Shown here piece by piece: positions 955 to 60,733 of a stretch of 64,000 nt of DNA (its first letter is position 1; each line of letters starts with the position of its first letter). Under the pieces are notes generated by a model, which worked only from the letters and a program-made list of their open reading frames with translations, did not search any database and had not been told where the DNA came from. The stretch covers positions 47,774,400 to 47,838,399 of the forward strand of contig NC_092378.1 in the NCBI RefSeq assembly GCF_030028105.1, given 5' to 3'. A program made the position numbers and the translations under genes. The stretch is from Mobula birostris. Its lineage: Eukaryota.

Positions 955-1025
955 AACATAGGGAAGGAATTTGACCCAAATGAGGTTCTGAGTCGGTGGA
1001 GTAACCTTCAGACTCAGAGCTGAGA
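955..1025 (-). CDS. Exon of the EGF/CUB gene (VSALSLKVTPPTQNLIWVKFLPYV); start of an unidentified downstream domain
   Basis: Acceptor ctgcttggcctacag|, donor GTT|gtaagt. 71 nt, phase 1 to 0, in frame with the 1154-1273 exon. Confidence 0.7.
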
Positions 1026-1153
1026 CTGTAGGCCAAGCAGACCATTGGTAACAATGGTAACATTTCCAGCTTCCTGCCACTGCTCACCCAAATCCAGAAA
1101 CAGTACTCATTGGAAAATGGTATCTGTGATCTGTGTGTAGGGTGCAGACTTAC

Positions 1154-1273
1154 CATAACATCCAGTCTCTGATTCACTCCAGCCTGGCACGCAGATACAC
1201 ACCGGATATCCTGACCTATCTGAGCTACAGGTCGCAGGTACGTTACAATCCAGTCTCCGGCAGGGAGACCACT
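1154..1273 (-). CDS. EGF-like (non-calcium) exon EWSPCRRLDCNVPATCSSDRSGYPVCICVPGWSESETGCY
   Basis: Acceptor ctcttgacctttgcag|, donor ATG|gtaagt. 120 nt, phase 1-1, six Cys in EGF spacing. The ORF track shows a different frame here. Confidence 0.9.
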
Positions 1274-2417
1274 CTGCAAAGGTCAAGAGTGATACAGTGA
1301 TATCAATAAAGGAATAGATGGGATTTTATTTTCTGTTGAGTAAGAGTGAGGCCTCCTACCTTTTTACTGACATACTGATCAATATGTGGGTCTGTGCCAT
1401 CTAATATACTTGGCCTCAAAGGACAACATTGTTTCAATCCTTCATTCTTCCCTTTATTTCAGTGAAAGTGGAAGTGGAGAGGAGTGTGTGATAAGCAGCT
1501 AAATAGAGATTGGACAATCATGCAAAATGAGCAAAGTCAAAAGACTGCACAGATCTCACAAGGAGGACCACTTGACTGCAGTTCCACCATTTCCAACTGG
1601 TTTACAAATGGCTCGAAGCTCATGGAGTGACCTCTATATGCATCTTTCCCCTCCACCAACAGGATGATTGTTAGCTCAGTATCAGTGCTGGGCTCTGCCG
1701 TGTGCCCTATTGGGTGGAAAGAACTGCCTCTGATTTTATCAATTAAGGAGTCTGTAAGCCAATGAGAGATTTGAGAATTTACATTTCATTAGATATGCAA
1801 TGCGGTTGCTTCCAATTGGAGATAGAGAAAGCTGCCATCTCATCAGCCTAGAGGCAGGTTGCTTATTCTAGAGTCTAGACCGAGGACAGGACTCGAGCGA
1901 GCGACTGCTGTCGCTGCATTTCTTTAATATAAAAGCATGAAAGCTTGCACTGATACCACTGAACCGTTGGTCTGAGAGGGCCAATTCTGTAAAATAAACC
2001 CCATTTATCCTATCCCAGACAACAAACAATATATTCAATGCACACACGTACACATAAAATATTTTGGAATGATCATTTATATTGTGTATGTGATTATTAA
2101 TAATAATTGTACTTTAAAGATCATGCTGCTTATTTTTCTCTTGTGAATGATTGAAGAAAGTGTTGATAATAAGCACAAACTACTTTATTATCAGTTCTGG
2201 ATAATTAACATTTTAAAGGCCCATCTGCCAGATACACTATCATAGTAATATATAAAATTCTGGGAAAATGGTTCTTCTCCCTGTCTGATGTCTGAGAAGT
2301 AAGCTCCCTTTCTCACTCAACATTTGAGAATCTGGTTCTCTTCCTCACTCAACATTTTGCCTTTTAAGTGATTTAACAAAACCCACCAATTTGCTCATTT
2401 AACACCATATGCTTAAA

Positions 2418-2594
2418 GTAATGCACACCAAATGCTGGAGAAACTCAGCAGGACTGCCTTGATGAAGGGTCTCAGCCGGAAGCGTCGACTATTTACTCTT
2501 TTCCATAGATTCTGCCTGGTCTGCTGAGTTCCTCAAGCTTTTTGTGTGCATTACTTTGATTTCCAGCATCTGCAGATTTTCTCTTGTTTGTGTG
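2418..2594. mobile_element. Penelope-derived hairpin element with 14-bp TSD
   Basis: Inverted arms (cacaccaaatgctggagaaactcagca / tgctgagttcctcaagctttttgtgtg). Flanks accatatgcttaaa (2404-2417) and accatacgcttaaa (2595-2608). Confidence 0.7.
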
Positions 2595-4450: not shown

Positions 4451-4669
4451 CCATTTCATAGTAAATGTTGAACTTTGTGTTTGGAATTTGTGGACCAGAA
4501 TGGAAGTGGACCCACATGTTAGTGCAGTTGGAGACATGAAAGGTGCCGGTATCTAAGTTTTCCTCAGTCAAATTGAATCGCACGTCTTGACCAGGATTCA
4601 TTCCACAGCCAAAGGAGATGTGATCTTCCTGGGATGTCACAGTCAACAAGTCCACCCTGAATCGGATTC
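4451..4669 (-). CDS. Second exon of the divergent CUB-like domain (GIRFRVDLLTVTSQEDHISFGCGMNPGQD...NMWVHFHSGPQIPNTKFNIYYEM)
   Basis: Acceptor gttttacccccag|, donor ATGG|gtgagt. 219 nt, phase 1-1. MWVHFHS...F.I.Y matches the CUB C-terminal strands. Confidence 0.85.
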
Positions 4670-7277: not shown

Positions 7278-10200
7278 ACCATAAGGCCATAGGACCATAA
7301 GACATCAGAGCAGAATTAGGTCATTTGGCCCATTGGGTTGGCTCCGCCATTTCATCATGGCTGATCCCATTTTTATCTCGGCTCCAATCTCCTGCCTTCT
7401 CCCCGTATCTCTTCATGCCCTGATCAATCAAGAATCTATCAACCTCTGCCTTAAATATACATAGAGACTTGGCCTTCACAGCTGCCTATGGCAAAGAATT
7501 CCACCAATTCACCACTCACTGGCTGAAGAAATTCCTCCTCATCTCCATTCTAAAAGGACACCCCTCTATTCTGAGGCTGTGCCCTCTGGTCTTAGACTAT
7601 CCCACCATAGGAAACATCCTCTCCACATCCACTCTATCAAGGTCTTTCATCATTCATTGATTTCAATGAGGTCACCTCCCAGTCTTCTGAATTCTAATGA
7701 ATATAGGCCCTGAGCCATCAAATGCTCTTCAAATGATAAGGCATTCAATCTTGAAATCATTTTCATGAACCTCCTTTGAATCCTCACCAGTTTCAGCACA
7801 TCCTTTTTAAAGACAAGGGGCCCAAAACTGCTCACAATACGCCCAGTGAGGCCTTACCAGTGCTCTCAACATTGCAGCCTTGTTTTTATATTCTAGTCCT
7901 CTTGAAATGAATGCCAACATTGCATTTGCCTTCTCCACCACAGACTTAACCTGCAAATTAACCTTTAGGGAATCCTGCACAAGAGCTTCCAAGTCCCTTT
8001 GCACCTCAGTTTTTTGTATTTTCTCTCCATTTAGAAAGTAGTCAACCCTTGCATTTCTTCTACCAATGTGCATGACCATACACTTCCCAACACCATACTC
8101 AATCTGCCACTTCTTTGCTCATTATCCTAATTTGTCCTGGTCCTTCTGTAACCTTTCTACTTCCTCAAAACTACCTGCCCCTCTAACTCTCCAACTGTCT
8201 TCGTATTGTCTGACAACTTTGCAACAAAGCTATCAATTCCATCATCCAAGTCATTAACATACAATGTAAAAAGAATTGGTCTCAACACAGACCTCTGTGG
8301 AATGCCATTAGTCACTGGCAGCCAACCAGAAAAGGTTCCCTTTATTCCCACTCTTTGCCTCCTGCTATGCAGACACTGATTTATCAATGCTAGAATCTTC
8401 CCTGTAATACCATGGGATCATAGCGTGTTAAGCAGCCTCAGGTGTGGCAACTTGTCAAAGGCCTTTTGTAAATCCAAGTAGACAATATCAACCAATTCTC
8501 CTATGTCTATTTGGCTCATTATTTTCTCAAAGAATTCCAACAGATCTGTCAGCAAGATTTTCCCATGAGGAAACCATGCTGACTATGGCCTCTTGCATCA
8601 CGTGCCTCCAAGTATCCTGAAACCACATCCTTAGCAATTGACTCCAACATCTTCCCAACCACTGAAGTCAGGCTAACTGACCTGTAATTTCCTGTCTTTT
8701 ATCTCTCTCCCTTGTTGAAGAGTGGAGTGACATTTGAAATTTTCCAGTCTTCCAGAACCATTGCAGAATCTAGTGATTCTTGAAAGATCATAACTAATGC
8801 CTCCACAAACTCTTCATCCACCTGTTTTGAAACCCCAGGGTGTACACCATCTGGTCTAGATGACTTATCAACCTTCAGGCCTTTCAGTTTCCCAAAAACG
8901 TTCTTCCTAGTAATGGTAACTTCACACACTTCATGTCCCCTGACATCTGGAACTTCCACCTTACTGCTAGAGTCTTCCACAGTGAAGACTGACATAAAAT
9001 ACTTACTCAATTTGTTTGCTATTTCCTTGTCCCCAATTACTACCTCTCCAGCATCATTTTCCAGTAGTCCAATATCCACTCTCACTTCTCTTTTACGTAT
9101 CTGAAGAAACCTTTGGCATCCTCTTTAATATTATTAGGTGGTTTACATTTGTATTCCATCTTTATCTTCTCAATGACTTTTTAGTTAACTTTGTCGGTAT
9201 TTGAAAGCTTTTCTAAACCTCTAATTTTTGCTCTAATATATGCCTTCTCTTAGGCTTTTATGTTGGCTTTGTCTTCTCTTGTTAGCCACAATTGTTCCAT
9301 CTTGCCTTTAGACTACTTCTTCCTCTTTGCAATTTATATATCATGTGCATTCTGAATCACTTCCAGAAATTCCAGCCATTGCTGCTCCGCAATCATCCCT
9401 GCCAGTAGTCTTTGCCAATCACTTCTGGCTAATTCCTCTCTCATGCCTCTATAATCCCTTTTAGTCTACTGTAATGCTGATACATCTGACTTCATCTTCT
9501 CCTCTCAAAATTTAGGGTGACTTTGATCATGTTACAATCACTTACACCTAAGTGTTCTTTTACTTTAAGCTCTCTAATTAACTCTAGATCATTGTGCAAC
9601 ACCCAGTCCAGAATAGCTGATCCCCTAGTGGGCTTAACCATAAGCTGCTCTAAAAAGCCATCTTGTAGGCATTCTTGAGATTCCCCTTCTTGGAATCCAG
9701 CGCCAACCTGATTTTCCCAATCTACCTGCATGTTGAAATCCTCCATGGCTATTGTAACATTGCCCTTTTGGGCAATCTCCCATTGTAATTTGTAGACCAC
9801 ATCTTTATTACTGTCTGGGGGTCTGTATATAACTCCCAACAGGGTATTTTTACTCTTGCAGTTCCTTTGCTCTATCCACAATGATTCAATACCTTCCAAC
9901 CCTCTGTCACCTCTTTCTAATGATGTGATTTCATTTTTTACCAACAGAGCAACACTGCTCCCTCAGCCTTCAGTACAATGTGTATCCTTGGATATTAAGC
10001 TCCCAACCATGGTTAAGCTTTCAGCCATGATTCAGTGACGCCTTCAACATTATACAGGCCAATCTGCAACTGTGCTACAAGTTCATTTACCTTATTCTAT
10101 ATACCGTGTGCCTTCTGTCCTGCATTCGGGCTTTTCAATTCTCTCCACCCTTTACATTGCAACTTGTCCTGTTGCCTGCAATTTTGTCCTGTCATCAGCC

Positions 10201-11255
10201 TCTCCTTGCTAGGAGTCTCACTACACCTTGCATCTGTTTGTAAACCAACAACCTCATCTTCAGCACAATCACTCCAGTTCCTGTCCCCATGTCAAATTAG
10301 CTTAAACCCAACTGAACAACTCTAGCCATCAAGGCCGCAAGGATATTGGACCCCTCAAGTTCAGGTGTAACCCATCCCTTTTGTACAGACCATATTTCGC
10401 CCAGAAGAGATTCCAGTGATCCATAAATCTAAACCCCTGCCCCCTGCTCCAGTTCCTCAGCCATGCATTCACCTACCTAATCATTACCCTCACTGGCACA
10501 TTGCACAGGCAACAATCCAGAGATAACTACCCTGGAGCTCCTGTTTCTCAGCTCCCTAAAATCTCTCTCCAGGACCTCCTCACCTTGTCTACCTGCATCA
10601 TTGGTGCCAATATGCACTGAGACTTCTGGCTGCTCACTCTCGCCCTTGAAAATGCCATGGATCCGAGCTGAAACATCCCTGATCTTGGCACCAAGGAGGC
10701 AACATACCACCCAGATGTCCCTATTGCACCCACAGAACCTCAGCTCTGCTCCTCTAACTACGGAATCTCCTATCAACACGGCAGTCCTCTTCACCTCTCT
10801 GCTCTTCTGAGCCACAGTATCAGACTCAGTACCAGAGACCCGGTCACTGTATCTCCCCCTGGTAGATTGTCTCCCTCAATAATATCTAAAGTTATATACT
10901 TACTATTGAGGGTAATGGCCACAGGTGTACTCTGCACTAACTATGCATTTCCCTTCCTTCTCCTGGCTGTTACCAGTTAGCTGTCTCCTGAAACCTAGGG
11001 GTGACTACTTCTCTATAGTTCCTTCTATCACTTTCTCATTCTCCTGTTTGAGTCAAAGGTCACTGAGCTACACCTCCAGTTCCATAATACGTTCTCTCAG
11101 GAGCTGCAGTTTGGTGCACCTGGTGCACATGTGGTTATCTGGGAAACCTCCAGTCTCCCAGACTTCCCACATTCCACACAGAGTACAAGACACTGCTCCT
11201 ACAGCCATTCTCACTACTCTGCTATGCCCTAACAGATCACCTCCATGAATCACCA
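7278..11255 (-). mobile_element. Near-full-length degenerate CR1 LINE (ORF1 zinc finger plus SGNH esterase; ORF2 endonuclease plus RT)
   Basis: CTLCGMWE..CTRC (11068-11253); LIGDSVVRG..HIGTND esterase (10477-10815); GVIYRPP/DFN endonuclease (9492-9944); RT fragments (LFTLYVNDLDDG, QRDL, CEQFWAP); short tandem-repeat tail at ~7278-7302. Many frameshifts. Confidence 0.9.
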
Positions 11256-11684
11256 GTACTTAACTAATTCCACCTTTGTGAACCAGCTAGATCAGTGCAA
11301 GCTATTATAAAGGTGCCGTACACTTCTCAATCCTGTTATTGCTAAATTTGGGATGTACATACATCCTGAATGATCATTCCTGAACAAGTCAAAGGTAAAT
11401 CCAATAGGCATTCTAGTGAGCATGTTCAGATGATCAATGAAGGTTTGATTTTCTCCTCCCAGTGACCCTTAAGTTTGGCTGCTCGCATAAGTGAGCTTGG
11501 GGAATGGAAGAATAATTTCCATAGCACAGACAAGTATGTGTACGGCAGCAAGTATTTAATGACTGATTGCAGTGACTGACATCACATGACCAAAGTCACG
11601 AAGAAGATGGGTGAGTTTTGAACATGTGATTAAAACTCTTGGAATATGGTCAATCCTAGTCTGGATTGTTGAACTAGCTCCTCC

Positions 11685-14600
11685 CTCATAACAAGGAGGT
11701 TACTAAAGAATAAAAGGTCTTCCTAGTGGCCTAGTGGCCTAGTCATACTTTATTAATCCCGGGGGAAATTGGTTTTCGTTACAGTTACTCCATAAATAAA
11801 AACTAGTAATAGAACCATAAATAGTTAAATAGTAATATGTAAATTATGCCAGTAAATTATGAAGTAAGTCCAAGACCAGCCTATTGGCTCAGGATGTCTG
11901 ACCCTCCAAGGGAGGAGTTGTAAAGTTTGATGGCCACAGGCATGAATGACTTCCTATCACGCTCAGTGCTGCATCTTGGTGGGATGAATCTCTGGCTGAA
12001 TGTACTCCTGTGCCCACCCAGTACATTATGTAGTGGATGGGAGACATTGACCAAGATGGCATGCAACTTAGACAGCATCCTCTTTTCAGACACCACCGTG
12101 AGAGAGACCAGTTCCATCCCCACAACATCACTAGCCTTACGAATGAGTTTGTTGATTCTGTTGGTGTCTGCTACCCTCAGCCTGCCGCCCCAGCACACAA
12201 CAGCAAACATGATAGCACTGGCCACCACAGACTCGTAGAACATCCTCAGCATCGTCCGGCAGATGTTAAGGGACCTCAGTCTCCTCAGGAAATAGAGACG
12301 GCTCTGGCCCTTCTTGTAGACAGCCTCAGTGTTCTTTGACCAGTCCAGTTTATTGTCAATTCGTATCCCCAGGTATTTGTAATCCTCCACCATGTCCACA
12401 CTGACCCCCTGGATGGAAATAGGGGTCACCGGTACCTTAGATCTCCTCAGGTCTACCACCAGCTCCTTAGTCTTTTTCACATTAAGCTGCAGATAATTCT
12501 GCTCACACCATGTGACAAAGTTTCCTACCGTAGCCCTGTACTCAGCCTCATCTCCCTTGCTGATGCATCCAACTATGGCAGAGTCATCCGAAAACTTCTG
12601 AAGATGACAAGACTCTGTGCAGTAGTTGAAGTCCGAGATGTAAATGGTGAAGAGAAAGGGAGACAGGACAGTCCCCTTTGGAGCCCCAGTGCTGCTGATC
12701 ACTCTGTCGGACACACAGTGTTGCAAGCACACGTACTGTGGTCTGCCAGTCAGGTAATCAAGAATCCATGATACCAGGGAAGCATCCACCTGCATCGCTG
12801 TCAGCTTCTCCCCCAGCAGAGCAGGGCGGATGGTATTGAATGCACTGGAGAAGTCAAAAAACATGACCCTCACAGTGCTCGCTGGCTTGTCCAGGTGGGC
12901 GTAGACACAGTTCAGCAGGAAGACGATGGCATCCTCAACTTCTAGTCAGGGCTGGTAGGCGAACTGGACAGGATCTAAGTGTGGCCTGACCATAGGCCGG
13001 AGCAGCTCCAGAACAAGTCTCTCCAGGGTCTTCGTGATGTGGGAGGTCAATGCCACCGGTCTGTAGTCATTGAGGCCGCTGGGGCGCGGCGTCTTTGGCA
13101 CAGGGATGAGGCAGGATGTCTTCCACAATACAGGAACCCTCTGGAGCCTCAGGCTCAGGTTGAATACATGGCGAAGTACCCCACATAGCTGAGGGGCACA
13201 GGCTTTGAGCACCCTGGTACTGACACCATCCGGTCCTGCAGCCTTGCTTGGGTTGAGATGCTTCAGCTGTCTTCTCACCTGTAGGGCTGTGAAGCCTACT
13301 GTGGTGGTTTCGTGTGGGGAAGTGGAATAGTCATGAGAGCAGGGTGGGGGACTGTGAGGAGGGGTAGGAGAGGAGAGTGGAATATGTGTTGGTTGGGGGC
13401 TGACAACAGATGGCTCATATGTGGGATGGGCAAGGGCCATACTGTCAAATCTGTTAAAGAACAGGTTAAGTTCGTTGGCCCTGTCCACACTGCCTTCCGC
13501 TCCTCTGTTGCTAGTTTGCTGGAACCCAGTGATGGTCCTCATCCCCCTGCAGACCTCTCTCATGTTGTTCTGCTGGAGTTTCCACTCAAGCTTCCTCCTA
13601 TACCTATCTTTAGCCTCTCTGATCCTGGCTTTCAGGTCCCTCTGTATTGCCCTCAGCTCCTCCCTATTTCCATCTCTAAATGCCCTCTTTTTAGCTTTCA
13701 GGATGTCCTTAATGTCCTTTGTCACCCATGGCTTGTTACCTGAATAACAAAGGACAGTTCTTGTCGGAACATTGCAGTCCACACAGAAGTTGATGTAATC
13801 AGTGATGTACTCTGTGAGCCCTTCAATGTTCTTTATTATATCCAGCAAAGCTCCCTCGGATGGAGGGAGGAAATTTTTTACTAACTCCCGGGAGGCGATA
13901 AAGTTTATTTAAAAAGTATCATACATCGTGATTCAGAATATTCTTCTGGAACAAGAGGCCTAGAAAAATGCATTTTGGACAAAATATATGAAGAAAATTA
14001 TTTGATTTTCATTAATATAGATTAATTTTAACAACATTATACTCTTGAACTTCGAATCTATATGATTATGGATGGTCTTTTTGAATTATAATACCAGGGA
14101 ACTATATAGTTAATCTAATTTTGTTATAACTAGTATGAATAGCTTTGATTATATAGATGTCATCTTTTGATATATTTAATTTTTGGTATGCTGGATATGT
14201 ATTAAGTTACAATATTTAGGGTTATATCTAGTAAGTTTCTTTGAATTCTGTTCTTTATTCGGATATATTGCTATATTAATGATATTTACTTTCAATATTA
14301 TAGATTATGTTAGATATTTAGTAATAATGGCTGTGGAATATAATTTATTTTTACAGATGTTTAATTAAGGAGTTATTGGGGGAGTGGATAATTTTTTCGT
14401 CTCTTTTTTTTTAAAAAAATGATTAATTGTGTTATATGTTAAAGAATGTCCATCTTTAGCGCGATGTTTATCGGACCCCACAGTGAGAGGGGTTAAGGTG
14501 CTGTGGACTCGGAGCGCCAGTTGGGAGGGATTTTCTCCCTTTATTTTACTTTTTTTTAAATTTTTTTTTTCTTTTATTTTCTTTCCTGTTTGGTTTCCTT

Positions 14601-17600
14601 TCTATTTTCTATACTCTATTGAGAATGGCACCAAATATCTCAGAGTCACTCAAAGAAGTGGGATTAATTTATACTTTTTTTGTGGGCAAGATCAACCAAT
14701 AAAATCTGATAACTATGAATAGAGCAATTAAATTTTTAAGTCTTAATGTTAATGGAATAAATGGACCGATAAAAAGGAAAATGGTCTGGCATATCTTTTA
14801 AAAAATCATATTGATAATACCTTCCTTCAAGAAACTCATCTTACAGTGACAGAACATAACAAATTAAAGAGAGGATGGGTTTGTCAAGTAATAGCGTCCT
14901 CCTTTAATTTTAAAGCCAGAGGAGTGGCAGTATTGATAGGGAAGAATTTGCCAGTGGAGGCGAAGGGTACTATCATAGATCCGGCCGAGAGATTTGTTAT
15001 GGTCGATTGTCAAATATACTCAGAATCCTGGACACTTTTGAATTTATATGCCCCCAATTATGACAACGAGAAATTTATCCAAGATATTTTTTTGAAAGTT
15101 GTTCAAGGATATGAAAATATCTTAATTGGAGGGGTTTTCAGTTTTTGTCTGGATCCAATTTTAGATAAGATCAGATAAAAAAGTCGTGAAGGTCAGAGCA
15201 GCAAAAACCACCCTGGCCTTCATGAAGGACTTGAATATAATAGACACTTGGAGATAGCAGCATCCAAGGAAAAGAGACTTCTCTTTCTATTCAAAACAAT
15301 ATGATTCCTACTCTAGAATTGACTTATTTTTAATATCAGCTAAATTAGAAAGTAGGATCATTCAAACAGAATATGCCGCTAGACCTCTATTGGATCATTC
15401 ACCTTTAACTTTATCAATTGAAATGCCTGATAAATAAAAACCATTATATAGATGGCGTTTTAATCCTTCGCTGTTGAAAAGACCAGAGTTTTGCAGTTTT
15501 ATTAGAGCTCAAGTAGAATTGTTCTGTGAGACGAACTCACCCTCTACTGCCAGTAATTTCTTATTATGGGACACATTAAAAGCATACTTGAGAAGACAGA
15601 TAATTGGATATGTTAAGGGTATAAAAAATAAATATGCAACAGAATTAAATGAATTGGAGAAAGAAATAACACAATTATAAAAAGATTGTCAGAATTTAAC
15701 AACAGAGGAAAATTATAATAAATAAATAAATAAATAAATTAGAGTATAACACAAAACAAACCTATAGAATAGAAAAAATGGTACTAAAATCAAAACAACA
15801 GTATTATGAATTAGGAGAGAGAACCCTTAAAGTACTATCTTGGCAACTGAGGGTGGAAGAAACCTCCAGAACAATAAATGCGATCCAAACAGGGGAAGAT
15901 AAGATTTCATATAAGCCAAAAGAAATAAATGATACTTTTAAGCAGTTCTATTCAGAACTATACAAATCAGAATCAGTGGGTGACTCACTGAAAATTGATG
16001 ATTTCTTGTCTAATTATACAACTTTCCAAATTGAGTCAACAAGATCAGGAAGAACTGAATGCCCCTTTTTCTAGGGATGAAATTGAACGAGCCCTAGGCT
16101 TATTACAGGCTAATAAATCACCGGGAGTTGATGGTTTTCCCCCTGAATTTTACAGAGAATTTAAGGATCAATTAATGCCCCTTTTTATGAGGGTTGTGAC
16201 TCAGGCTGAGGAGACCCATACTCTACTGGAATCCTTTTCGACAGCAATTATTACTTTAATTCTTAAGAAGGATAAGGATCCGCTAAAACCAGCATCTTAT
16301 AGGCCCATCTCACTTTTAAATGTGGACTATAAAATTATAGCAAAGGCATTGGCTAAAAGATTAGCTCGATATCTGCCAAAATTGATTAAATCCAATCCAA
16401 CAAGATTTATTAAAAATAGACAATTATCTGATAATATTGGCAGATTATTGACTATATTACATTTAACTAGGACGAAGGTGGACCTGACCGTAGCAGTGGC
16501 TTTAGATGCTGAAAAGGACTTTGATAGACTTGAATGGGATTTTTAATTTAAAACACTGGAAAAATTTGGTCTAGGCCAAATATTCATAAATAGGATAAGA
16601 GCACTTTAACATCAGTCTAAGGCCAAAATAATTACGAACGCGCAGATTTCACCAGTTTTCTCTCGACAGAGATCTAGTAGACAAGGTTGCCCGCTATCTC
16701 CAGCTCTATTTGCTCTGGCAATAGAGCCATTGGCTGAGGCTGTTAGACAGGATCCAGACATAAAGGGGTTTAAAGTGGCCCAGGAAGAATATAAAATTAA
16801 TTTATTTGCTGATGACATTTTAGTATATTTGGCTGACCCGGCCCGCTCTTTGGTAAGACTTAGGGACTTGCTGGACAATTATGGTATAGTCTCAGTATAT
16901 AAAATAAATTGGAATAAAAGTGAAATTTTACCTTTAGGTAGAGGAGATTATGCCCAATATCAATATGGCACTCAGTTTAGATGGGTTAAATATAACATGA
17001 AATATCTGGGGATTAAGTTTAATCGTAATTTGGATGACCTTTATAAACTTCATTAGCTCCCCTTGCTGTGGAATGTCGAGGAGGACCTACGTAGGTGGAT
17101 AAAGCTTCCCATCACACTGATGGCCAGGGTAAACTGTATAAAAATGAAGATAATGCCAAGACTTCAGTATTTTTTTCAGTCTTTACCTATCCCATTATCC
17201 AATAATTTTTTAAAGATTCTCAATGGACATATTCGTCTATTTTTACGGTCGGGTAAAATATCTAGAATCTCCATGAAAAAATTGACCTGGGACTATAAAT
17301 TGGGAGGGTTAAAATTACCAGATTTTAAAAAAATATTATTTAGCTGCACAAGCACGTTTTATTGCTTCTTTTTTTGATGAGACAACTGTTCCTTCTTGGG
17401 TTACAATTGGCTTACATATGGTAGGAGAAGAGATGGCAGAAGAATTTATATATAAATGGGACTCCAAAATAATTAAAAAGAAAACAAACAATCCTCTACT
17501 GAGACATGTAATTTATATCTGGGAAAAAAAATTAAACAATTTATGGGTCTAAAAAAAGGAATATTCTCAAAAACACCTCTATCTCAGAACAGATTAATAC

Positions 17601-18819
17601 CCATGACTCTTGGTAATAAATTTCTAGTCACCTGGTACCAACACGATATCAGGCACATTGAAGATTGTTATAATCGGCAGAAGCAATTTATGTTTTTTGA
17701 GGGACTTAAAAATAAATATAATTTATCTAATGACACATTCTTCTGCAATCCCCAATTACGATCTTTTTTGAGGGACTGTTTGGGTCCATCACTGGCCCTA
17801 CCAAGGTGCTCAGACATGGAGATTCTAATTTGAAAGGGGAATACAACTAAATTTATTTCTAATACATACTCTTTATTCCAAGACCAATGTCCAAAGCTTG
17901 GTATATACAGATCGAGGGAGAGATAGGAGTCGGATTTGGGCATTGTAATTGATCATCAATGTTGGTCACATCTATGTTTGGATACTGTTACCACTCTTAT
18001 CAACTCTAGATACAGAATGATACATTTTAATTTTTTACATCAGTTGTATCTCACACCTGAAAAAATACATAAAAATAAACCAGAAATTTCTGACAAGTGT
18101 TTCAGGTGTGGCATAGATGTTTGTACCTTTTTGCATTCCACCTGGCTATGCACCAAACTGAGATCTTTTTGGATAGACCTGGGGGAGGTACTGGGAAAGA
18201 TTCTGGGGATGGATTTCCCTCTAGACCCAAAATTGTTTCTTCTGGGGAACTTGGCAGTTTTGAAAGTTAACCTCCCCAGGAATAAATCCAAATTTATTAA
18301 AATTGCATTGTCAGTGGCCAGGAAATGCATAGCGGTAACACGGAAATCCGATTCCCTTGTATATATTGTTCGTTGGAATAAAGAAATGCAAAATTGTATA
18401 CTCCTTGCGAAGATTACTTAGCCCCTTAGGAATGGATACACTACGTTCATTGAGATTTGGCAACCATATTTGGATTACTTAAATGCCCAGCTTTTTTAAT
18501 CTATTTATTTTATTTTCTTTAAGTTAATATATCCCTTATAATAAGCTAGTTTCTTTAATTTGTATTTTAAGCTAACTCTGAGAGCTGGATACCTACTCTT
18601 CTTTTTCTTTTTTTTCTCTCCTTTCTTTTCTCTGTCTTTTATGATTTTTTTCTCCCTCCTTTTTTCTAAATGCAGGGAGATGGTGTTGGGATAGGTGTTC
18701 TTTTTTTTCTCTCAGACTTATTAATGTATTTGAATTAATTTTTTTTCAATATGTATTAATTGTTGTATTAATTGAGTCCTTATATTTCTTCCTTAAAAAA
18801 TTAAATAAAATATATAAAA
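11685..18819 (+). mobile_element. 5'-truncated L1-clade LINE (ORF1 C-terminus plus disrupted ORF2), interrupted by a Rex1 insertion
   Basis: ORF1 remnant LLYPAKL..GRKFFTNSREA at ~13832. ORF2 runs from ATG 14715 (MNRAIKFLSLNVNG) with YAPN, KSPGVDG, YRPISLLN, QGCPLSP, FADD and the C-terminal CFRC..H..W.C knuckle. AATAAA/A-rich tail; 13-bp TSD aactagctcctcc at 11672-11684 and 18820-18832. Confidence 0.9.
11722..13830 (-). mobile_element. 5'-truncated Rex1/Babar-type non-LTR retrotransposon; RT frame with a single in-frame stop
   Basis: ORFs 12946-13848 and 11881-12873 share one frame, split by TGA at 12946-12948. Motifs KAAGPDG, YRPVALTS, FFDFSSAFNTI, KFSDD, LNVKKTKELVVD. Tail of (ctagtggc) repeats at 11722-11744. 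Confidence 0.9.
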
Positions 18820-18915
18820 AACTAGCTCCTCCTTTCCTACCCAGCTTCTGCTCTATGGTCATTAGATGATGCACCTACTATAATTGTTGCTGTATCTTTG
18901 GAAACAGAGAGTTAC

Positions 18916-19101
18916 CTGTGTACAGGTGAGTGGAGTTAGACACCTGGACCAAGTTGAAGAACCAGTACATGTCCTCACTATTCTGGTAGTCGCTAGAGAA
19001 GTTGTTGGACACAATGAAACCAGATACACAGGGACAGGCATTCTTCGAAACAGCCTGCAGATCCACAGTTCTTGGTATAATTTCTGGTGGACAAAAGCAA
19101 C
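18916..19101 (-). CDS. First exon of the divergent CUB-like domain (GCFCPPEIIP...SGFIVSNNFSSDYQNSEDMYWFFNLVQVSNSTHLYT)
   Basis: Acceptor ttctttggtttcag|, donor ACAG|gtaact. 186 nt, phase 1-1. SGxIxSxNFxxxYxN....W matches the CUB N-terminal motif. Confidence 0.85.
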
Positions 19102-19289
19102 CTGAAACCAAAGAAAAATAACGTGAATCACTGAACAACTATCAAAGTCCTTTTTGTTCTTTCCTATAATCTCCTGTATTACACTTCATTCACACAATGA
19201 TCATAAGTACTTAAGTAGACTTCATCTCATGTATCTAAGCATTCATGAGAAAAGCTGCCTTAATGTATGTTCATGAATTATATTAAAAT

Positions 19290-20220: not shown

Positions 20221-20346
20221 CTTCACAGTGTGTCCCATTCCCTCTGTAATAGGATTTGCACTCACAGTGGTAGGACCCCATCGAGTTCAGACACTGAGCA
20301 TTGCTGTCACACTGATTCAGCACAGGATCCGCACATTCGTTGACAT
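20221..20346 (-). CDS. cbEGF exon type C: DVNECADPVLNQCDSNAQCLNSMGSYHCECKSYYRGNGTHCE
   Basis: Acceptor tctactcttttcag|, consensus donor AAG|gtgagt. 126 nt, phase 1-1, DxNEC and CxNxxGSYxC motifs. Absent from the ORF track. Confidence 0.93.
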
Positions 20347-21605: not shown

Positions 21606-21731
21606 CTGTGCATGATGTTCTGTTTCCGGGTCTCAGGGTGTACCCTGGGTGACAGTCACAGTGGTAACTGCCCATCGTGTTCACACAGAGCTGGGAGCAG
21701 CCGCCATTGTCCGACAGACATTCATCCACAT
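21606..21731 (-). CDS. cbEGF exon type B2: [42 protein letters not shown]
   Basis: Acceptor cccctgcttttcag|, weak donor CAG|gttgga. 126 nt, phase 1-1. Confidence 0.85.
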
Positions 21732-23941: not shown

Positions 23942-24067
23942 CTGTGCATGATGTTCTGTTTCCAGGTCTCAGGGTGTATCCTGGGTGACAGTCACAGTGG
24001 TAACTGCCCACCGTGTTCACACAGAGCTGGGAGCAGCCGCCATTGTCCTGCAGGCATTCATCCACAT
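23942..24067 (-). CDS. cbEGF exon type B1: [42 protein letters not shown]
   Basis: Acceptor atccctgtttttcag|, weak donor CAG|gtttaa. 126 nt, phase 1-1. Confidence 0.85.
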
Positions 24068-25187: not shown

Positions 25188-25310
25188 CTGCACAAGTCCT
25201 TCCATTCCCAGTGTAGCCAGTCCCACAAACACACTGGAAAGAGCCGGGGCTGTTGGAACAGGAGGCTGAGCTGTGACAGTCATGGATTCCGCTCTGACAC
25301 TCATCCACAT
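25188..25310 (-). CDS. cbEGF exon type A8: [41 protein letters not shown]
   Basis: Acceptor ttccaaacttcag|, donor CAG|gtaact. 123 nt, phase 1-1. Confidence 0.92.
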
Positions 25311-35317: not shown

Positions 35318-35440
35318 CTGTACAAGTTCTCCCGTCCCCAGTGTACCCAGCCCCACACACACACTGGAAAGAGCCAGGGCTGTTGGAACAGGAGGCCAAG
35401 CTGTGACAGTTGTGGCTCCCACTCTGACACTCATCCACAT
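35318..35440 (-). CDS. cbEGF exon type A7: [41 protein letters not shown]
   Basis: Acceptor ttccaatctccag|, donor CAG|gtaact. 123 nt, phase 1-1. Confidence 0.92.
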
Positions 35441-38977: not shown

Positions 38978-39100
38978 CTGTACAAGACCTTCCATCCCCA
39001 GTGTAGCCAGGCCCACACACACACTGGAAAGAGCCGGGGCTGTTGGAACAGGAGGCCGAGCTGTGACAGTCGTGGCTCCCACTCTGACACTCATCCACAT
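38978..39100 (-). CDS. cbEGF exon type A6: [41 protein letters not shown]
   Basis: Acceptor ttccaaactccag|, donor CAG|gtaact. 123 nt, phase 1-1. Confidence 0.93.
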
Positions 39101-39636: not shown

Positions 39637-39760
39637 CTGTACAAGCCCTCCCGCACCCAGTGCACCAGCCCAACACACACACACTGGAAAGAGCCAAGTT
39701 TGTTGGAACAGGAAGCCGAGCTGTGGCAGTCACGGCTTCTACTCCGATACTCATCCACAA
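39637..39760 (-). pseudogene. Dead type-A cbEGF exon (full length)
   Basis: Acceptor ag changed to gg, donor gt to gc, first Cys to Tyr (DEYRSRSRDC). 124 nt, a net +1 frameshift beside the TG run. Confidence 0.88.
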
Positions 39761-42046: not shown

Positions 42047-45000
42047 AGCAGCAAGGATGTCTCTCCATGCTCTTTTCCAAGCATTGCAGCAGCAGCAAAC
42101 CAGGGCTCAGGTGGACAGGACCTCCACCATTGGCTCCTCCATTGGAATAACAGGGAGTTGTTAGCCATGAAGTACTTCAAAGGGTGACATAGCCGTGTCA
42201 GAAGAGCCGTGTAAATTGTGGGACGGCTTGGCCCAGAGCAGATACTTTTTCCATGTGAAGGCAGTGAGGCACTGCAGAAACTTCTCCACTTGTTGATTGA
42301 CTCTCTCTGACTGACCATTGGTTTGCGGATGATAGCTAGAAGACAAATTTACTGAGCTGTGGAGGAGGGAACGGTTGGCTCGCCAGAAGCAGGAGACGAA
42401 TTGTTGGCCCTGATCAGATACAATGTCCTGAGGGAAGCCATGGAGGCGAACTACATGGCAGAAGTTTGGGGAGAGAAATAAAGTGCCACGCCTTGGAGAA
42501 CTGGTCCTCCATTGTTGTGATCATTGCGACCCCATTAGAAGTGGCAACCCTCTAATGAAATCCACAGTGATGTGGGATCACGGGCCTCAAAGGACCAGCA
42601 GGAGCCAGTGGGCACTGATTGGAGGAATTGGAATGGGCACATTAGGGGCAGGCCATGAATGATGTGCATCAGCAATCATAGTGGACCACCAGAAGCAGCA
42701 CTGCAGAAGATCCAGACTCTGTTGTTAGTCTGGAAGGCCAGAGAGAGAGAGAGGCATATGGAGTGAGCCCACTGGAGTGCCTCAGAGCACACCGCTGCCA
42801 GCACAAACATGAGCTTGTCAGCTGGAGCAGGCTTGTGCTGTAACGCCTGGCGGATCTGGTCTCAAGGTCCCAGATGATTGGCATGAAGATCTGGGATGAT
42901 GGAATGATGAGCTGAGAGTCGAGCTCTGTTTCAGCTGGTTCACTCAGGGTGAATGCCTTAGTGTTCTTGGAACTGGGTAGTTGGAGATGGTGAAGTTGAA
43001 TTGCTCAAAGAAGAGGGCCCATCTAACCAACATGGGTTGAGTTGGTGGGACTGTTGAATGGATATAAGGTTCTGTTGGTCAGTCCCGATAAGGGCATGGT
43101 GTTTCCTGTCAGTCAATGTCTCCATCCCTCCATGTGACGGCAGGTAGTCAGTCTCCTACTCCATACCATGCTGTGTAGAGTTGAACTTAAGTGAGAACGC
43201 ACAGAAGTGCGTTATCGCATTCGGTCCTCGCTGGAAGAGGATGGCCTCTGAGCTCACGTCAAATGCGACCAGCTCTACCACAAAAGGATCAGAGTGGTTT
43301 GGATGGCGGGGAATGGGAGCGGTGGCAAAGCATCTCTTGAGCTTCTCGAAAGTGTGGTCTGCAACAGCTGACCGTTTCATCTGTGAGGTAGGTGATTCGG
43401 TGAGGGAGGTGGGAAGAGCAGCGATTTGGCTGTAGATCCTGATGAAGTGACGGTAGAAGTCAGAGAAACCCAGGAAGTGCTGTGGCTGTTTGAGGGACCA
43501 CAATCAATGCCATTCAACGATGCTGCACACTTTCCATGGTTATAGCTTGGGATGAAAGGGCATAACCCAGGAAGGAAATGACTGAGGCATGGAACTGGCA
43601 TTTCTCTAACTTGTGTTTTTGAGGAGATACTGAGGGATTGAATGGACGTGACAGACGAGGTCTTGGGAGTCCTTGGAGAAGTCAGGGAAATACCTGTGCA
43701 CCATGTCTCAGAGGATATCATTGATGCCCTTCGGACTTTCCAACAGCCTAGCATTTTCCAAACCTGCATCATAGTAGCCAGTGGGTGTTATGAATGCTGT
43801 CTTGCACGTGTCTTCCTGGCAGATGTGGATCAGGTTTTACTTGCCTTATAGATCCAGTTTCGTGAAGATATGGACCTGGTGGGGTGTTTCAGATGCACAA
43901 TCCAGTAAGGGAAAAGAGTAGTGGTTCTTAATCTCTCTGGATGCCACAGTAGCGTAGGTGTTGGCACGATGCTATTACAGATTAGGATGTTAGGGTTCAG
44001 AGTTCAATCTGGCGTCTTCTGTAAGGAGTTTGTACGTCCTCCAAGTGGAATGCATGGGTTTTCTCTAGATGCTCCAGTTCCTTCCACAGAGTCTGTTAGT
44101 AGGTTAATTGGTCATTGTAAATTGATTAGGCTAGGGTTAAATCGGGGTTGCTAGGCAACACAGTTTAAAGGGCCAATAGGGCCTATTCCATGCAATATCT
44201 CTAAATTAATGGTGATTTTGTTGTCCACAGTAGTGCAAGGATGGAGACCCCATATTTCTTTTTGACAAAGAAGAATCCTGCACTGGCTGGGCAGAGGGAT
44301 AGTTGAATGAAACAGCACTCTAGCACTTCGGCAACATATCATTTCATGGCTTAGGTCTTAGGAGGAGAGAAGAACAGATGACCTTAGGAGAGATGGTGCC
44401 TGGGAGGAGGTTGATCGTGCAGTCGTGTGGTTTGTGAAGCAGCAGGACGCTGACTTCCCTCTTACTGAAGGCAGTCGCAAGTTCATGATATTCCTGTGGG
44501 TGTTTGGTGAGGTTGAGGGTTTCCCCTGTCTCCACTGATCTACGGAGTGAAGTTAACTGAAGTTGCAGGCAGGTGGTCTAGCAAGTGAGTCCCCAGCATA
44601 GCAGTGAACTGGATGACCAGGCAAAGTGAGGGAGAGCTATGGGTAACTCAAGACGAGGGGAGTGTTACATGAGTTGATCGGGGGAATTGGATGGACACAA
44701 AGTGGCCTCTGATGTTTATGTTCTCAGGCCAAGTGCTGAGTTCTCGCTCTGACCACCCAAGACCCCAGAGGACGTCCGTCACTGGCTGTGATGCAAAAGG
44801 CATGATAGAAAGTCTAAGCTGTACACACGGAATCTGGTCCAAAAAGTTGCTTGCTGTGCCAGAGTCCACCAGAGCCTCCTGTGCACGTGGAGCCATTGAG
44901 TTGTGGAGCAGGACAGAGAGAGCGATTCGGGCTATGGTGCTGGAACGAGAGGCCAAGGGGAACTTGCCAGGTAGAAGCCTCTCGTCTCTACCTGGTGGTG

Positions 45001-46152
45001 CTGTTTCCCGGATGCAGCGTGCGATTGTGGTCAGCTGCTCTGTGGTAGGTGCACAAGTTGTTTCTTCACCAATGATCACAATCGTGGGGTGCTAAGGGAG
45101 CTCTCCCTAATTGCCTGGGTCCTGGAGGCACCTGTTGCCTGAAATGATTCTGGAATGAAACTGGGGGTCCGGCCAATGACCTGGAGGGTTATTTTATAAG
45201 ATGCTTGTCGATATGGTGGGCCAGAGTGATGAGGCTTTTGAGGTTGGTGGGCTCCTCCCGGGTCGACAGCATGTCTATTAAGTGCTTTGAGAGTCTGCGA
45301 TGGTAATGGCGCTTCTGCCTTCCAGCCACACTCCACTGAAAGTGTCCTGAATTCCACAGTGTAATCCAGCACTGAGTGTCAGCCTTGATGCTCAGTATCC
45401 GATTTCCTGCCCCCCTTCCGCTTCCCAGATGGTCGAAAACCAAGGGCATCTCAGCAATGAATTCCTTATGTTTATTGCATATGGTGGCTTCATTGTTCCA
45501 GTTAGCGGCAGCCAAGAGAGAGACGATGAAGACAATCTTGGCTCAGTCTGTAGAATACAGAAATGACTGGAGCTTTAAGTGTAAGTCACACTGGGCCAAC
45601 AAGTTGCAGCATTGGGTTGAAGCACTCAGGCAGCGGAACCTGGGGCTCTGAAGGAGGAAGTTGACTGTCACAGGGTTCCTGTATTGAGACAGTCAGTTGG
45701 AAGAGACTGGTGAACAGATGGTCAATGGTTTCCTGCTGTTTCTGGATCCCATGCTCACGTTGACAGACGACTTACTTTAAGTGAGTTTACTCTGCTGGGC
45801 TGGTCAATGGTTCACTCATCCTGTCAGGAAATGTACAGGAGGCTTGACCCAACAGCAGAGCCGTGGAGATAATTCAGCAGCAAACAATAACTTTAGTAAT
45901 GGACCACAATTATAAAGATAACTAGCCATGAGAGGCCACAAAATAAGAGAGAACAGATAGTAAATACCACAGGCAACAAAGTAACTGAAGGCTGGGAGAA
46001 TCTGATTGAGACTGGCTGGTTCTGTGGGTGAACAGGTACTATAGATGAGAACTGGGTTTAAATAGGCTGCAGCTGATGAGTAGAAATGAGTGGCAGCTGA
46101 TTTCCGTTAGCTGGGAAGAGACTGGGAGGTGTCTGCATGTGTCAGCCCGACA
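42047..46152 (-). mobile_element. Degenerate Ty3/Gypsy (chromovirus/Sushi-like) LTR retrotransposon with 5' LTR at 45822-46152
   Basis: TG..CA LTR; gag (EFIAEMPLVFDH, DYTVEFRTL); protease ALVDSGTASNFL; RT/RNaseH (FLGFSDFYRHFI, DPFVVELVAFDV); integrase SSSYHPQTNGQSERVNQ. A SINE is inserted at ~43945-44210. The 3' end runs into the gap. Confidence 0.85.
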
Positions 46153-50387: not shown

Positions 50388-50510
50388 CTGTACAAGTCCT
50401 TCCATTCCCAGTGTACCCAGCCCCACACACACACTGGAAAGAGCCGGGGCTGTTGGAACAGGAGGCTGAGCTGTGACAGACATGGCTTCCACTCTGACAC
50501 TCATCCACAT
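50388..50510 (-). CDS. cbEGF exon type A5: [41 protein letters not shown]
   Basis: Acceptor ttcaaaactccag|, donor CAG|gtaact. 123 nt, phase 1-1. Confidence 0.92.
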
Positions 50511-53068: not shown

Positions 53069-53191
53069 CTGTACAAGTCCTTCCATCCCCAGTATACCCA
53101 GGCCCACACACACACTGGAAAGAGCCAGGACTGTTGGAACAGGAGGCCGAGCTGTGACAGTCATGGCTCCCATTCTGACATTCATCCACAT
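53069..53191 (-). CDS. cbEGF exon type A4: [41 protein letters not shown]
   Basis: Acceptor ttcgaaactccag|, donor CAG|gtaaat. 123 nt, phase 1-1. Confidence 0.92.
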
Positions 53192-54275: not shown

Positions 54276-54398
54276 CTGTACAACTCCTCCCATCCCCAGT
54301 GAATCCAGGCCCACACACACACTGGAAAGAGCCGGGGCTGTTGGAACAGAAGGCCAAGCTATGACAGTTGTGGCTCCCACTCTGACACTCATCCACAT
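54276..54398 (-). CDS. cbEGF exon type A3: [41 protein letters not shown]
   Basis: Acceptor ttcccaactatag|, donor CAG|gtaacc. 123 nt, phase 1-1. Confidence 0.9.
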
Positions 54399-56349: not shown

Positions 56350-56565
56350 AGCAACACACATCAAAGTTGCTGGTGAATGCAGCAGGCCAGGCAGCATCTC
56401 TAGGAAGAGGTACAGTCGATGTTTCAGGCCGAGACCCTTCGTCCAAACGTCTGAAACGTCGACTGTACCTCTTCCTAGAGATGCTGCCTGGCCTGCTGCG
56501 TTCACCAGCAACTTTGATGTGTGTTGCTTGAATTTCCAGCATCTGCAGAATTCCTGTTGTTTGCG
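56350..56565. mobile_element. Young Penelope-derived hairpin element with a perfect 14-bp TSD
   Basis: Near-perfect inverted arms of ~77 bp; tggttaaaatgaat at 56336-56349 and 56566-56579. Confidence 0.85.
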
Positions 56566-57914: not shown

Positions 57915-58037
57915 CTGCACAAGACCTTCCATCCCCAGTGTAGCCAGTCCCACACACACACTGGAAAGAGCCAGGGCTGTTGGTACAGGAGGCCGAGCTG
58001 TGACAGTTGTGGCTCCCACTCTGACACTCATCCACAT
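57915..58037 (-). CDS. cbEGF exon type A2: [41 protein letters not shown]
   Basis: Acceptor ttccaaactccag|, donor CAG|gtaact. 123 nt, phase 1-1. Confidence 0.93.
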
Positions 58038-59342
58038 CTGGAGTTTGGAAGAAAGGTAGTTTTCACTGGAAGGTCAACAGCTTTCTGAACAATTAAGTTC
58101 TCACTCTGATGTACAAAGAAAGTGATTCAACTTCGTTCCTTATATAAAAAGCTCTGGGACCATGGCGGGAGTCTCTGGCTGCACAGAGTAAATCACCACC
58201 ATATCTGACTTTGGTGATAGACAGGATAAGGAGTGGAAGACAATAATCTTTAAGAAGAAAGCACAATTATGGAATCTGATAGGACAGTAAAAGAGAAAGC
58301 TTTACTATATGGGGTGAGTGTGACAGGTTAAAATAACTACTGGGCCCTCACTGTGGACAGTACCCTCTCAGCAAACTGCCTTTTCCAAAAGGTCCCTTCT
58401 GGAAAGTGCTACGGGGCTACTTAAAAAAACATCACACTGTCTTAAGAGTTTCTTTGCCTAGGCAGTTAATCTGATCAAGCATTCTAGTTAGCCACCCCGA
58501 CCCTCCCTTATCTATTACCACAGTAACTGCACTTCACTGTACACACTGCTTTATATAATGCTACTTACATCGTAAATACATGAAAATATTTATGTATTTA
58601 TGCAGATTTTATTCCATCTCATTACTTTAACCTCTAGGTTTATTTTTAATATTTCTTAAGGTTAGCTGGGGTGGTAATGGGGACAAGCTCCCACTACCCA
58701 ATAAATGCTCCCAATGGTGTGTACCTCAAATAACCTCTGACAACCAAGTCCAGATCCTAGCCTTCACGCGTAGCTTCACTACTAAGCCTGGTGGAACTAT
58801 TTGTACTGACAGGAGAAGGGGCAAAGGGGGGTTACTAGTTCGTTAAAGCCAGTTGCTTCAGGCAGATGGGGCTCGCCGGCCATGGTTGGTAACTCATTTG
58901 GGAGAAGGAAAATTCTAATCTCAAACCTCTGCTGCCTTGTGGCTACGCCCACTCATGGGGAAGGCTTCAGGAGCAAACCCCGAGGGAAAAATCTGGAGCT
59001 GGAGCCCCTAAGGTAGTCCCACATTGAGTTCAATGCTGACTGGCAACTCCTGTGATGTTGCTGGTACCAAACTGTATCGGTCTTTGCCGTTCCTTTGGGT
59101 TCATCAGTTGTGTTGGGGGGGAGGGGGCTTGCTACATATAGCTTGTTTTTCATATTGTACTGCCCAGGCTTGCGTATCTAGACAGGCAGGACACAATATC
59201 CAGGGTCAACTCTGACCAACAGAGACCCTCACAATACTTTATTCTTATAATTGCTGAATATTGCTGTTTCTGTGCAACACATCACAGCAAATTACTAATA
59301 CATGTGAATGTATATAGCAAATAAAGTTGATCCTTGACTAAG

Positions 59343-59490
59343 TAAAGCACACAAAATGCTGGAGAAGCTCAGCTGGTCGGGCAATATAACATTATTCCTC
59401 TCCATAGATGCTGCCTGACCTGCTGAGTTCCTCCAGCATTTTGTGTGTATTATTCTGGATTTCCAGTATTTACAGAATCTCTCGTGATTA
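59343..59490. mobile_element. Penelope-derived hairpin element with ~15-bp TSD
   Basis: tgatccttgactaag (59328-59342) and tgatccttgaccaag (59491-59505); inverted arms. Confidence 0.7.
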
Positions 59491-60610
59491 TGATCCTTGA
59501 CCAAGCTATCTTACAATGAGTTGTGGAGAAACCTCTTCATCCAGAATGGTGAGAATATGGGAGATAGGACTCCAATCACAAGGAGTGTTTGAGGTTTCCA
59601 TTCACAGGAGAGGTAAATATGTCATAAAGGATCAGAAATGTATCTATCAATGGGAGATGAGGGAGGATTTGTATGCAGTGAGAACAGTAACATCCTGTCA
59701 ATCTCTCAGCCTAGAGATCACTCAGACATAGATCTCACAGTGGTAAAACATAGGCCAACTCACTGTGGTTAATAAAGGATTATTGAATGTTACCAAGAAT
59801 ACGGGTTAAAATTGCAATCAAAACAAACCCTGTCATTTGCGAATATGATTCAGTCATTTAAGTTTTTCAGTCATAACATTTAACTGCAATGAATTTATTA
59901 AAATGTAAAATAATGCAGCACATTTAATCGTAGCATTCAGAAAAATCTGACCTGACATGTACAGTAGCAGTACTGCAAATTGGTTTGTAAATTTACAATG
60001 GGAAAAGTCAAAACTCACTTGAAGAAATTGCAATATTCCCAGCTAGGTATAGACATATTAAAGAGAGCTGGCAAAAGCTTAATGATGGAGACATGTTTTA
60101 GGAAACATCTTAAATGTGGAGAGATACTTAAAGGTGTTTGTGAATGACATTTAACTGTTTGGAACCTCAGCAATAGTATGCATGTCTTGCAAAGTTGAGG
60201 GAAAATGACTAAGATGAGGTAACACCATCTGGGTCAATGGCAGCAGTGTCTAGCTGCCCATCCTTCTCATACTATTCACAGAGCAAGCCACTATCATGTC
60301 TGGATCCCTAATTTTAGTGATGGACAGGAGGAGTGGAAGACAAGAAAGGGCATTAATAGAATCTGATAGGTCTGCAGAAGGAGAAAATATTTCTACAAGG
60401 CATTCTGGACCTTGGCAGTCCAAAGACCTTGGAACATGGCTGCCAAAGATTAGGGAAAAACATTCAGGAATGAATAAGAAATAAGAATGAGGGGAATGTT
60501 GGTGGACTGACAGGCTCCATTCGTTGCGGAGCTCTGTAACGTTACAAATGAGACAGATTGGTTACCTTTACTGACTGAACTCTAGAAGTATCATTCTCAG
60601 TATCAATTAC

Positions 60611-60733
60611 CTGCACAGGTCCTTCCATCCCCAGTGTAGCCAGTCCCACACGTACACTGGAAGGAGCCAGGGCTGTTGGAACAGGAAGCCGAGCTGTGAC
60701 AGTTGTGACTCTCGCTCTGACACTCATCCACAT
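60611..60733 (-). CDS. cbEGF exon type A1: [41 protein letters not shown]
   Basis: Acceptor ttctcaactccag|, donor CAG|gtaatt. 123 nt, phase 1-1. Confidence 0.92.

Follow-up and report, generated by a model that had tools for sequence, protein, structure and literature searches.

The 64,000-nt stretch of Mobula birostris DNA analysed here (NCBI RefSeq assembly GCF_030028105.1, contig NC_092378.1, forward-strand positions 47,774,400 to 47,838,399), called the window below, carries an array of calcium-binding epidermal growth factor-like (cbEGF) exons followed by a CUB-fold domain and a further EGF exon. We interpret this array as one cassette of an unnamed elasmobranch gene, which probably encodes a giant uroplakin that would stand beside a tetraspanin and would hold its CUB heads, on calcium-stiffened stalks, far out from an epithelium or an egg. 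Uroplakins are otherwise small proteins of the bladder lining. A preliminary description, made from the letters of the window alone, had proposed an unnamed, lineage-specific extracellular protein whose stalk was lengthened by exon duplication; our results agree with it, orthologues having been found in elasmobranchs only, within searches of limited reach. We take the block to be one cassette of a larger membrane protein, the orthologues of which have FN3 domains and an anchor of uroplakin-3 type at their end; this lay beyond the view of that description. By the searches made, the gene is likely to be an unnamed variant of the known uroplakin family.

Exon anatomy of the cassette and splicing in related transcripts

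A six-frame scan located 12 cbEGF-like segments, every one on the minus strand, and the exons were recovered by a splice-site scan. Fourteen exons were confirmed, all with AG/GT ends, a length divisible by three and symmetric phase 1-1: eight cbEGF exons of 123 nt (type A), two of 126 nt (type B) and one of 126 nt (type C), the two halves of the CUB-fold domain (186 and 219 nt) and an EGF exon of 120 nt. When spliced by script, these exons give 1887 nt, or 628 codons, with no stop. The calcium-binding EGF consensus (a D-x-D/N-E-C start, six Cys residues and C-x-N-x-x-G-S-F/Y-x-C) is present in all 11 cbEGF exons, and the four of these that were scanned against Pfam all passed the EGF_CA cut-off. 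The inventory given in the preliminary description, comprising 11 cbEGF exons, an atypical CUB, an EGF exon and 14 symmetric exons among 15 that join in frame on the minus strand, was thus borne out for the 14 exons, and its fifteenth exon was not. Its three sequence gaps are also present, as runs of N of 169, 185 and 199 nt.

All features lie on the minus strand. Type A exons 1 to 8 are located at 60611..60733, 57915..58037, 54276..54398, 53069..53191, 50388..50510, 38978..39100, 35318..35440 and 25188..25310. A ninth, dead copy, not noticed in the preliminary description, lies at approximately 39637..39760, 660 nt upstream of a live one; this pseudo-exon has lost its acceptor AG, its donor GT and its first Cys and contains small indels. 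These are followed by type B exon 1 (B1, 23942..24067), its duplicate B2 (21606..21731), the type C exon (20221..20346), the first CUB exon (18916..19101), the second CUB exon (4451..4669), which is preceded by a 14.2-kb intron, and the non-calcium EGF exon (1154..1273). The additional exon of the preliminary description (955..1025, phase 1-0) is doubted because comparison of its peptide with the collected orthologues gave nothing meaningful and because every orthologous cassette that continues beyond the EGF exon enters an FN3 domain, which is not present in the window. Pfam gave nothing useful for this exon, and a reading of it as a PKD domain was rejected. It is probably spurious as an exon of this gene, and the FN3 exon must probably be sought beyond the window.

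Transcripts of related origin were considered from six presumed RNA runs, of which four were mapped on 18800-25400; the results refer to the pieces listed. In the first run, a contig proceeds from a type A piece, which maps to exon 8, to B1 (with 4 differences), C and CUB exon 1 in contiguous record coordinates. A contig of the second run also joins C to CUB exon 1, placing C in spliced contigs of two of the four runs, and the third run contains an exon-sized B2 piece. The fourth shows no cover of the CUB exon among the pieces listed, which proves nothing. In these related transcripts, the B, C and CUB exons are spliced as predicted. B2 is missing from the first contig; with 18 differences from the window in the A piece and 15 in the CUB piece, however, this contig may derive from a different cassette or species, so that the absence of B2 is no proof of skipping. 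The preliminary description had regarded a lack of spliced reads as the mark of a pseudogene, and contigs of two presumed RNA runs, possibly from another copy, are spliced at the predicted junctions.

Orthologous cassettes and the uroplakin-type membrane end

The cassette is shared among elasmobranchs. With CUB exon 2 as the query, one protein was matched, a little skate model automatically named fibrillin-1-like (69%). CUB exon 1 matched eight proteins, five of them from elasmobranchs, the best being a manta model of 3481 aa (86%, six matches); one of the three weak matches was inspected and is a kringle and CUB protein. The skate region from the CUB to the end gave 117 matches: 10 elasmobranch orthologues, all with E <= 2e-117, and 107 weaker ones (E >= 4e-20, at most 36% identity), which were nearly all FN3 proteins by name or annotation. 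Gene models of sharks, skates and rays, from ten species in all, share the block, with identities of up to 100% per exon in manta. No chimaera or bony vertebrate orthologue appeared in the protein searches with the CUB exons and the skate region, which have a limited reach.

We compared models from manta (XP_072124103), little skate (XP_055506885), basking shark (XP_078424633) and zebra shark (XP_059508606), whose exons are 44-100% identical to those of the window. Motif parsing gave a cassette order of EGF run, C, CUB, EGF and FN3, with six cassettes in the manta model and two in each of the other three. The type C exon stands before the CUB in 15 of the 16 orthologous cassettes that retain their upstream part, and the last skate cassette has eight type A copies, the same number as the window. 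The elasmobranch models thus contain the same exons, whereas the number and order of EGF exons and cassettes vary by species; the window has the arrangement A8-B2-C with a deviant CUB exon 1. A fourth EGF type occurs in shark models, but none was found in manta or skate; as a candidate for the window it was rejected, since none was found there either.

In five complete models, four FN3 domains are followed by a domain of uroplakin-3 type, a membrane helix and, at the end, a tail of 325-447 aa in which Ser, Thr, Gln and Gly abound. The ectodomain is about 3,100 aa long in manta and about 1,600 aa in skate, and exceeds 1,300 aa in basking shark. In all five, the tail has a short juxtamembrane motif in which Trp, Met, Gly, Tyr, Asp, Thr, His and Phe are invariant, followed by Ser/Thr/Gln/Gly-rich repeats. 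A likeness of its Tyr portion to mammalian UPK3B was not confirmed in the supplements searched. Among four manta models, two differ in the tail, where one repeat unit is alternatively present.

It is this end that resembles a uroplakin. Against the PDB, the top match of the catshark orthologue is uroplakin 3A (E 6.2e-11, residues 402-531), in an alignment that covers three Cys residues, strand motifs and the helix entry, and the manta orthologue matches the same protein at E 6.2e-6. The Pfam family Uroplakin_II gave a weak match (E 0.039), and the Atlas leads were to UPK3B at 0.85-0.86, below the Atlas bar of 0.9. A 902-aa structure model had a mean predicted local distance difference test score (pLDDT) of 36, with values under 50 in the uroplakin region, and a word-based, and hence insensitive, search for short relatives of this region scored none of 119 candidates.

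According to PMC5242461, the marks of the UPK2/3 proteins are a long FN3-like domain, the Cys residues C1-C4, the CNGPL signature and introns in the phases 1,1,2,1,2. First, C2, C3 and C4 of the orthologues align with uroplakin 3A, and C1 was assigned by inspection against the alignment rows available in PMC5242461. Second, in the segment C3-X(n)-C4-NGPL, both Cys residues and the Leu are kept and the NGP part is changed; the published UPK3c and UPK2b rows of that alignment also vary. Third, the helix-entry motif RSAGMIVIT is present in all five complete models (as RSAGMIIIT in one). It fits the UPK2/3 rows, whose consensus we read from the same alignment as R-S/T-G/A-G-M-I/V-V-I-T, while the rows of PTPRQ, Ciona and neighbouring R3 proteins examined there lack it. 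Fourth, read-through ends of incomplete protein models would place phase-1 introns at the positions of UPK2/3 introns 1 and 4, and a further phase-1 intron near intron 2. No PTP active-site motif was found in any of the five complete models, and Pfam found no PTP family in the skate protein.

The orthologues therefore share with the UPK2/3 family (UPK3a, 3b, 3c, 3d, 2a and 2b; PMC5242461 and PMC3922775, in the parts available, and PDB 8jj5 chain C) a four-Cys juxtamembrane FN3-like domain, the helix-entry motif, a single helix, the absence of a phosphatase and putative phase-1 introns at positions 1, 2 and 4. In contrast, the ectodomain of UPK2/3 is shorter than 200 aa and the tail about 50 aa, whereas the orthologues carry EGF, CUB and FN3 cassettes in front, for 1,300 to more than 3,000 aa, and have a longer tail and a CNGPL signature that has diverged in part. 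Because the ectodomain has more than 1,300 aa instead of fewer than 200, we regard the protein as a variant of UPK2/3 rather than a plain member. The skate and shark UPK3a, UPK3b, UPK2a and UPK2b rows in the available alignment of PMC5242461 differ from it. In the literature on uroplakins with PTPRQ, fibronectin, shark, stingray or elasmobranch, the gene is not described in titles and the starts of abstracts, subscription papers lying outside this coverage; the available main text of PMC3922775 mentions neither fibronectin nor EGF, and in the accessible portion of PMC5336234 the relevant terms matched only in its references.

Might the gene instead survive from a transition between R3 phosphatase receptors and uroplakins? 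It would then have lost its phosphatase, kept ancestral FN3 domains and received the EGF and CUB cassettes later. The juxtamembrane domain of UPK2/3 was also found in PTPRQ and Ciona proteins (PMC5242461, in the sections available). The R3 phosphatases (PTPRQ, PTPRB) and the Ciona forms have FN3 repeats, a long juxtamembrane domain and one helix in common with the orthologues, and the Ciona forms are likewise without a phosphatase; this arrangement is the one proposed for the intermediate in the same sections. However, R3 receptor phosphatases have an FN3-only ectodomain and a PTP domain, whereas the elasmobranch orthologues have EGF and CUB domains, no PTP and the uroplakin-type helix entry that the Ciona and PTPRQ rows lack. 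The best-scoring matches of the orthologous FN3 domains are LAR-type and not R3 phosphatases, though at only 25-29%. In addition, the searches yielded no orthologue beyond elasmobranchs, and lamprey already has small uroplakins. We therefore find such a survival rather unlikely. Comparably doubtful is its extended form, in which the gene would be a living intermediate of uroplakin origin, FN3-bearing, phosphatase-less and tetraspanin-bound, that branched before the small uroplakins and then became a cassette-repeated antenna, thousands of residues long, with its reach tuned by exon number and skipping, serving in the apical coat of urea-retaining epithelia or as a sperm receptor on the egg surface.

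Alternatively, a named vertebrate gene such as fibrillin, SCUBE, UMODL1, SUSD1 or an R3 phosphatase could have its diverged orthologue here, and the automatic names 'fibrillin-1-like' (skate) and 'fibronectin-like' and 'Notch-like' (catshark pieces) point in this direction. The cbEGF-stalk proteins (fibrillin, ADGRE2/CD97, uromodulin, SCUBE) have tandem cbEGF domains, one per phase 1-1 exon, as in the window, and the EGF runs find their best PDB matches in NELL2, ADGRE5 and uromodulin. In contrast to these, no TB, GAIN/7TM or ZP domain was found in this family, the order is different, and repetition occurs at the level of the cassette. Pfam scans of the skate proteins returned no TB, ZP, SEA, sushi or PTP family, and no bony-vertebrate protein matched the CUB exons or region above the generic FN3 level in searches of limited reach. 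Fibrillin/LTBP was accordingly rejected for want of TB (8-Cys) domains in these scans, and SCUBE, cubilin and uromodulin on architecture, as the preliminary description had argued. It had added that a named one-to-one orthologue would remove the novelty; no bony-vertebrate match above the generic FN3 level was obtained in these searches, while the uroplakin-3-like end of the orthologues (E 6e-11) would connect the gene to a named family. A named vertebrate orthologue appears highly improbable.

The CUB-fold domain and the condition of this copy

The CUB label holds by fold, on the evidence of structure models, and not by sequence. In the Atlas structure of the bamboo-shark orthologue, all ten rows were CUB (TM 0.66-0.72), giving a jelly-roll fold, and in the VIA structure search the top 17 rows were CUB-bearing chains (Z 6.5-8.1), although the model used there and for Foldseek was of low confidence (mean pLDDT 45). 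An alignment of the domain to a CUB protein by hhalign gave a probability of 28% at E 6e-4, in which the second canonical Cys and the last acidic residue appear to be replaced, and a profile of the CUB alignment found no PDB sequence at E <= 1.

Several observations weigh against a giant uroplakin encoded in part by this window. The link of the cassette to the FN3-uroplakin end is drawn from automatically predicted genes of other species, whose models apparently start mid-domain, and the orthologues keep the CNGPL signature only in part. Pfam detected no CUB by sequence in the CUB exons of the window or in the skate proteins, and Foldseek returned no row at E <= 0.001 with the CUB model, its first row being non-CUB. 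Further, CUB exon 1 of the window deviates at 4 of the 30 columns that are invariant in 20 orthologous copies, and at five changed codons of this exon (ten differences listed) the contigs of two runs have the consensus residue. Because the contigs carry the consensus where the window deviates, the expressed copy may be another one.

These last points raise the question of whether the window holds a decaying or detached duplicate, that is, a skipped internal cassette or a truncated paralogue, with the working copies elsewhere in the locus. The lost residues of CUB exon 1 include the Pro of the CUB N-F-P motif. Among the 20 orthologous copies of this exon, 19 show no or one departure, and one shows as many as the window. 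Its identity between window and manta is 86%, compared with 96% among the manta cassettes, a gap that does not exist for C, CUB exon 2 or the EGF exon, and the contigs differ from the window at 14-15 sites in CUB exon 1 but at 2 in the neighbouring exon. The dead EGF copy within the array, and the broken or rearranged cassettes in the skate and catshark models, would also fit decay. Against this, frame, splice sites and Cys residues are intact in all 14 exons, and the type A copies have a pooled ratio of nonsynonymous to synonymous differences (pN/pS) of 0.26. No invariant column is changed in B1, B2, C, CUB exon 2 and the EGF exon, which together contain 91 (post-hoc Fisher p 0.003 against CUB exon 1). 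Moreover, the contigs may belong to another species or cassette, and the changes in CUB exon 1 could mean that a binding face is under relaxed or positive selection. We thus regard a detached duplicate as unlikely, and likewise, from the sequence, we think it unlikely that this copy is decaying or under relaxed selection. Returning to the reading as part of a giant uroplakin, it is quite likely, judging from the gene models, that in this genome, too, splicing joins the cassette of the window to the uroplakin end.

Growth of the array and proposed origin

Nucleotide identity among the eight live type A copies is 85-96% (mean 90%), compared with 49% for random 60-mers in the same aligner; this near-identity, which the preliminary description had noted for eight 41-aa exons, is beyond chance. 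In protein, the copies are 87% identical within the window and 86% between window and manta, and the arrays of skate (93%) and catshark (96%) are more homogeneous. With the pN/pS given above, the EGF copies are under purifying selection. Their flanks are 57-59% identical beside the exon and fall to the 49% background past about 120 nt, and longer shared flanks exist in two pairs only (about 960 nt at 72%, and about 390 nt at 83%, the latter length being shared by B1 and B2). The loss of flank identity within about 120 nt suggests that the duplications are old and that the exons were conserved while the introns filled with LINE (long interspersed nuclear element) and SINE (short interspersed nuclear element) remains. 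The earlier view that each copy sits in its own intron unit is therefore weakly supported beside the exons and in the two longer pairs, and finds no support beyond them.

The introns hold several other repeats. LINE-type elements, several of them broken, occupy 8699-18421 within the 14.2-kb CUB intron, with reverse transcriptase remains recognised by Pfam at 11881-12945 (-) and 15992-17056 (+) and other LINE-type pieces recognised by appearance only. Fragments resembling an LTR (long terminal repeat) retrotransposon by eye, protease-like and integrase-like, lie at 42300-45100 (-); Pfam gave no match for the one tested. The intron between B2 and C contains a 900-nt foldback (20616-21516) of three nested inverted arm pairs (80-86%), formed by two head-to-head repeat copies. 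Two near-perfect hairpins are present, at 56350-56528 (78-nt arms, 97%, 23-nt loop) and at 26207-26422 (72-nt arms, 93%, 72-nt loop).

The symmetry of the exons led the preliminary description to propose combinatorial isoforms, and on this basis the array could be an exon-choice device that diversifies a recognition receptor. All 14 exons can be skipped in frame, C directly follows a single B exon in one contig, and one of the four manta models is without one B-type exon. Furthermore, an inverted SINE-like pair (21424-21516 and 25009-25101, 82% complementary) flanks both B exons and could loop them out, although this repeat is very common and the pair may be due to chance. Symmetric phase is, however, the normal state of EGF exons. 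The contig with 18 differences in its A piece may stem from a cassette with one B exon, and the manta models are predictions. Because the type A copies are so alike in protein and under purifying selection, skipping would alter length rather than specificity. The phases permit such isoforms, but much sequence diversity is not to be expected from them, and we consider a diversifying device very unlikely.

How could a giant uroplakin of this kind have come about? We propose that the first intron of a UPK3 duplicate, an intron of phase 1, would have taken up EGF, CUB and FN3 exons of phase 1-1, and that the gene would then have grown by duplication of single exons and of whole cassettes. Such an origin, as opposed to the retention of an ancestral form, seems likely to us. 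In the mature protein, calcium would stiffen the EGF runs, which we infer to be rigid spacers, their number setting reach and not specificity; from fibrillin dimensions, eleven cbEGF domains would be about 30 nm long. How far out the CUB heads would bind a putative partner would thus depend on the number of exons.

Uroplakins form heterodimers with tetraspanins, are expressed on the egg surface and undergo phosphorylation of the UPK3a tail by Src-family kinases, as reported in the available part of PMC6340209, and our functional suggestions are based on these reports. By analogy with UPK2/3, the protein may well pair with UPK1a or UPK1b through its juxtamembrane domain and helix, a suggestion that we favour slightly. 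Signalling may occur via the Tyr of the tail motif conserved in all five complete models. As the most likely role, we tentatively suggest an apical adhesion or barrier coat on epithelium, which we hold to be possible rather than probable; gamete-surface recognition comes next, and is a good deal less likely.

By itself the window adds a modest amount, since it does not contain the informative end of the gene. UPK2/3 proteins have been described as small single-domain partners of tetraspanins, and a survey of 2014, in its available text, claims near-exhaustive identification of the family (PMC3922775). This picture of uroplakins as small proteins is broken by a conserved gene of elasmobranchs in which the same anchor carries a very large arm of EGF, CUB and FN3 modules. 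It also offers a clear example of growth at two levels, by exon and by cassette duplication, that differs between species. Finally, the accessible text of PMC5242461 proposes that uroplakins descend from phosphatase receptors with FN3 repeats, and the gene allows this proposal to be tested in a vertebrate, in that a tree of a single domain could tell a relic from later exon capture.

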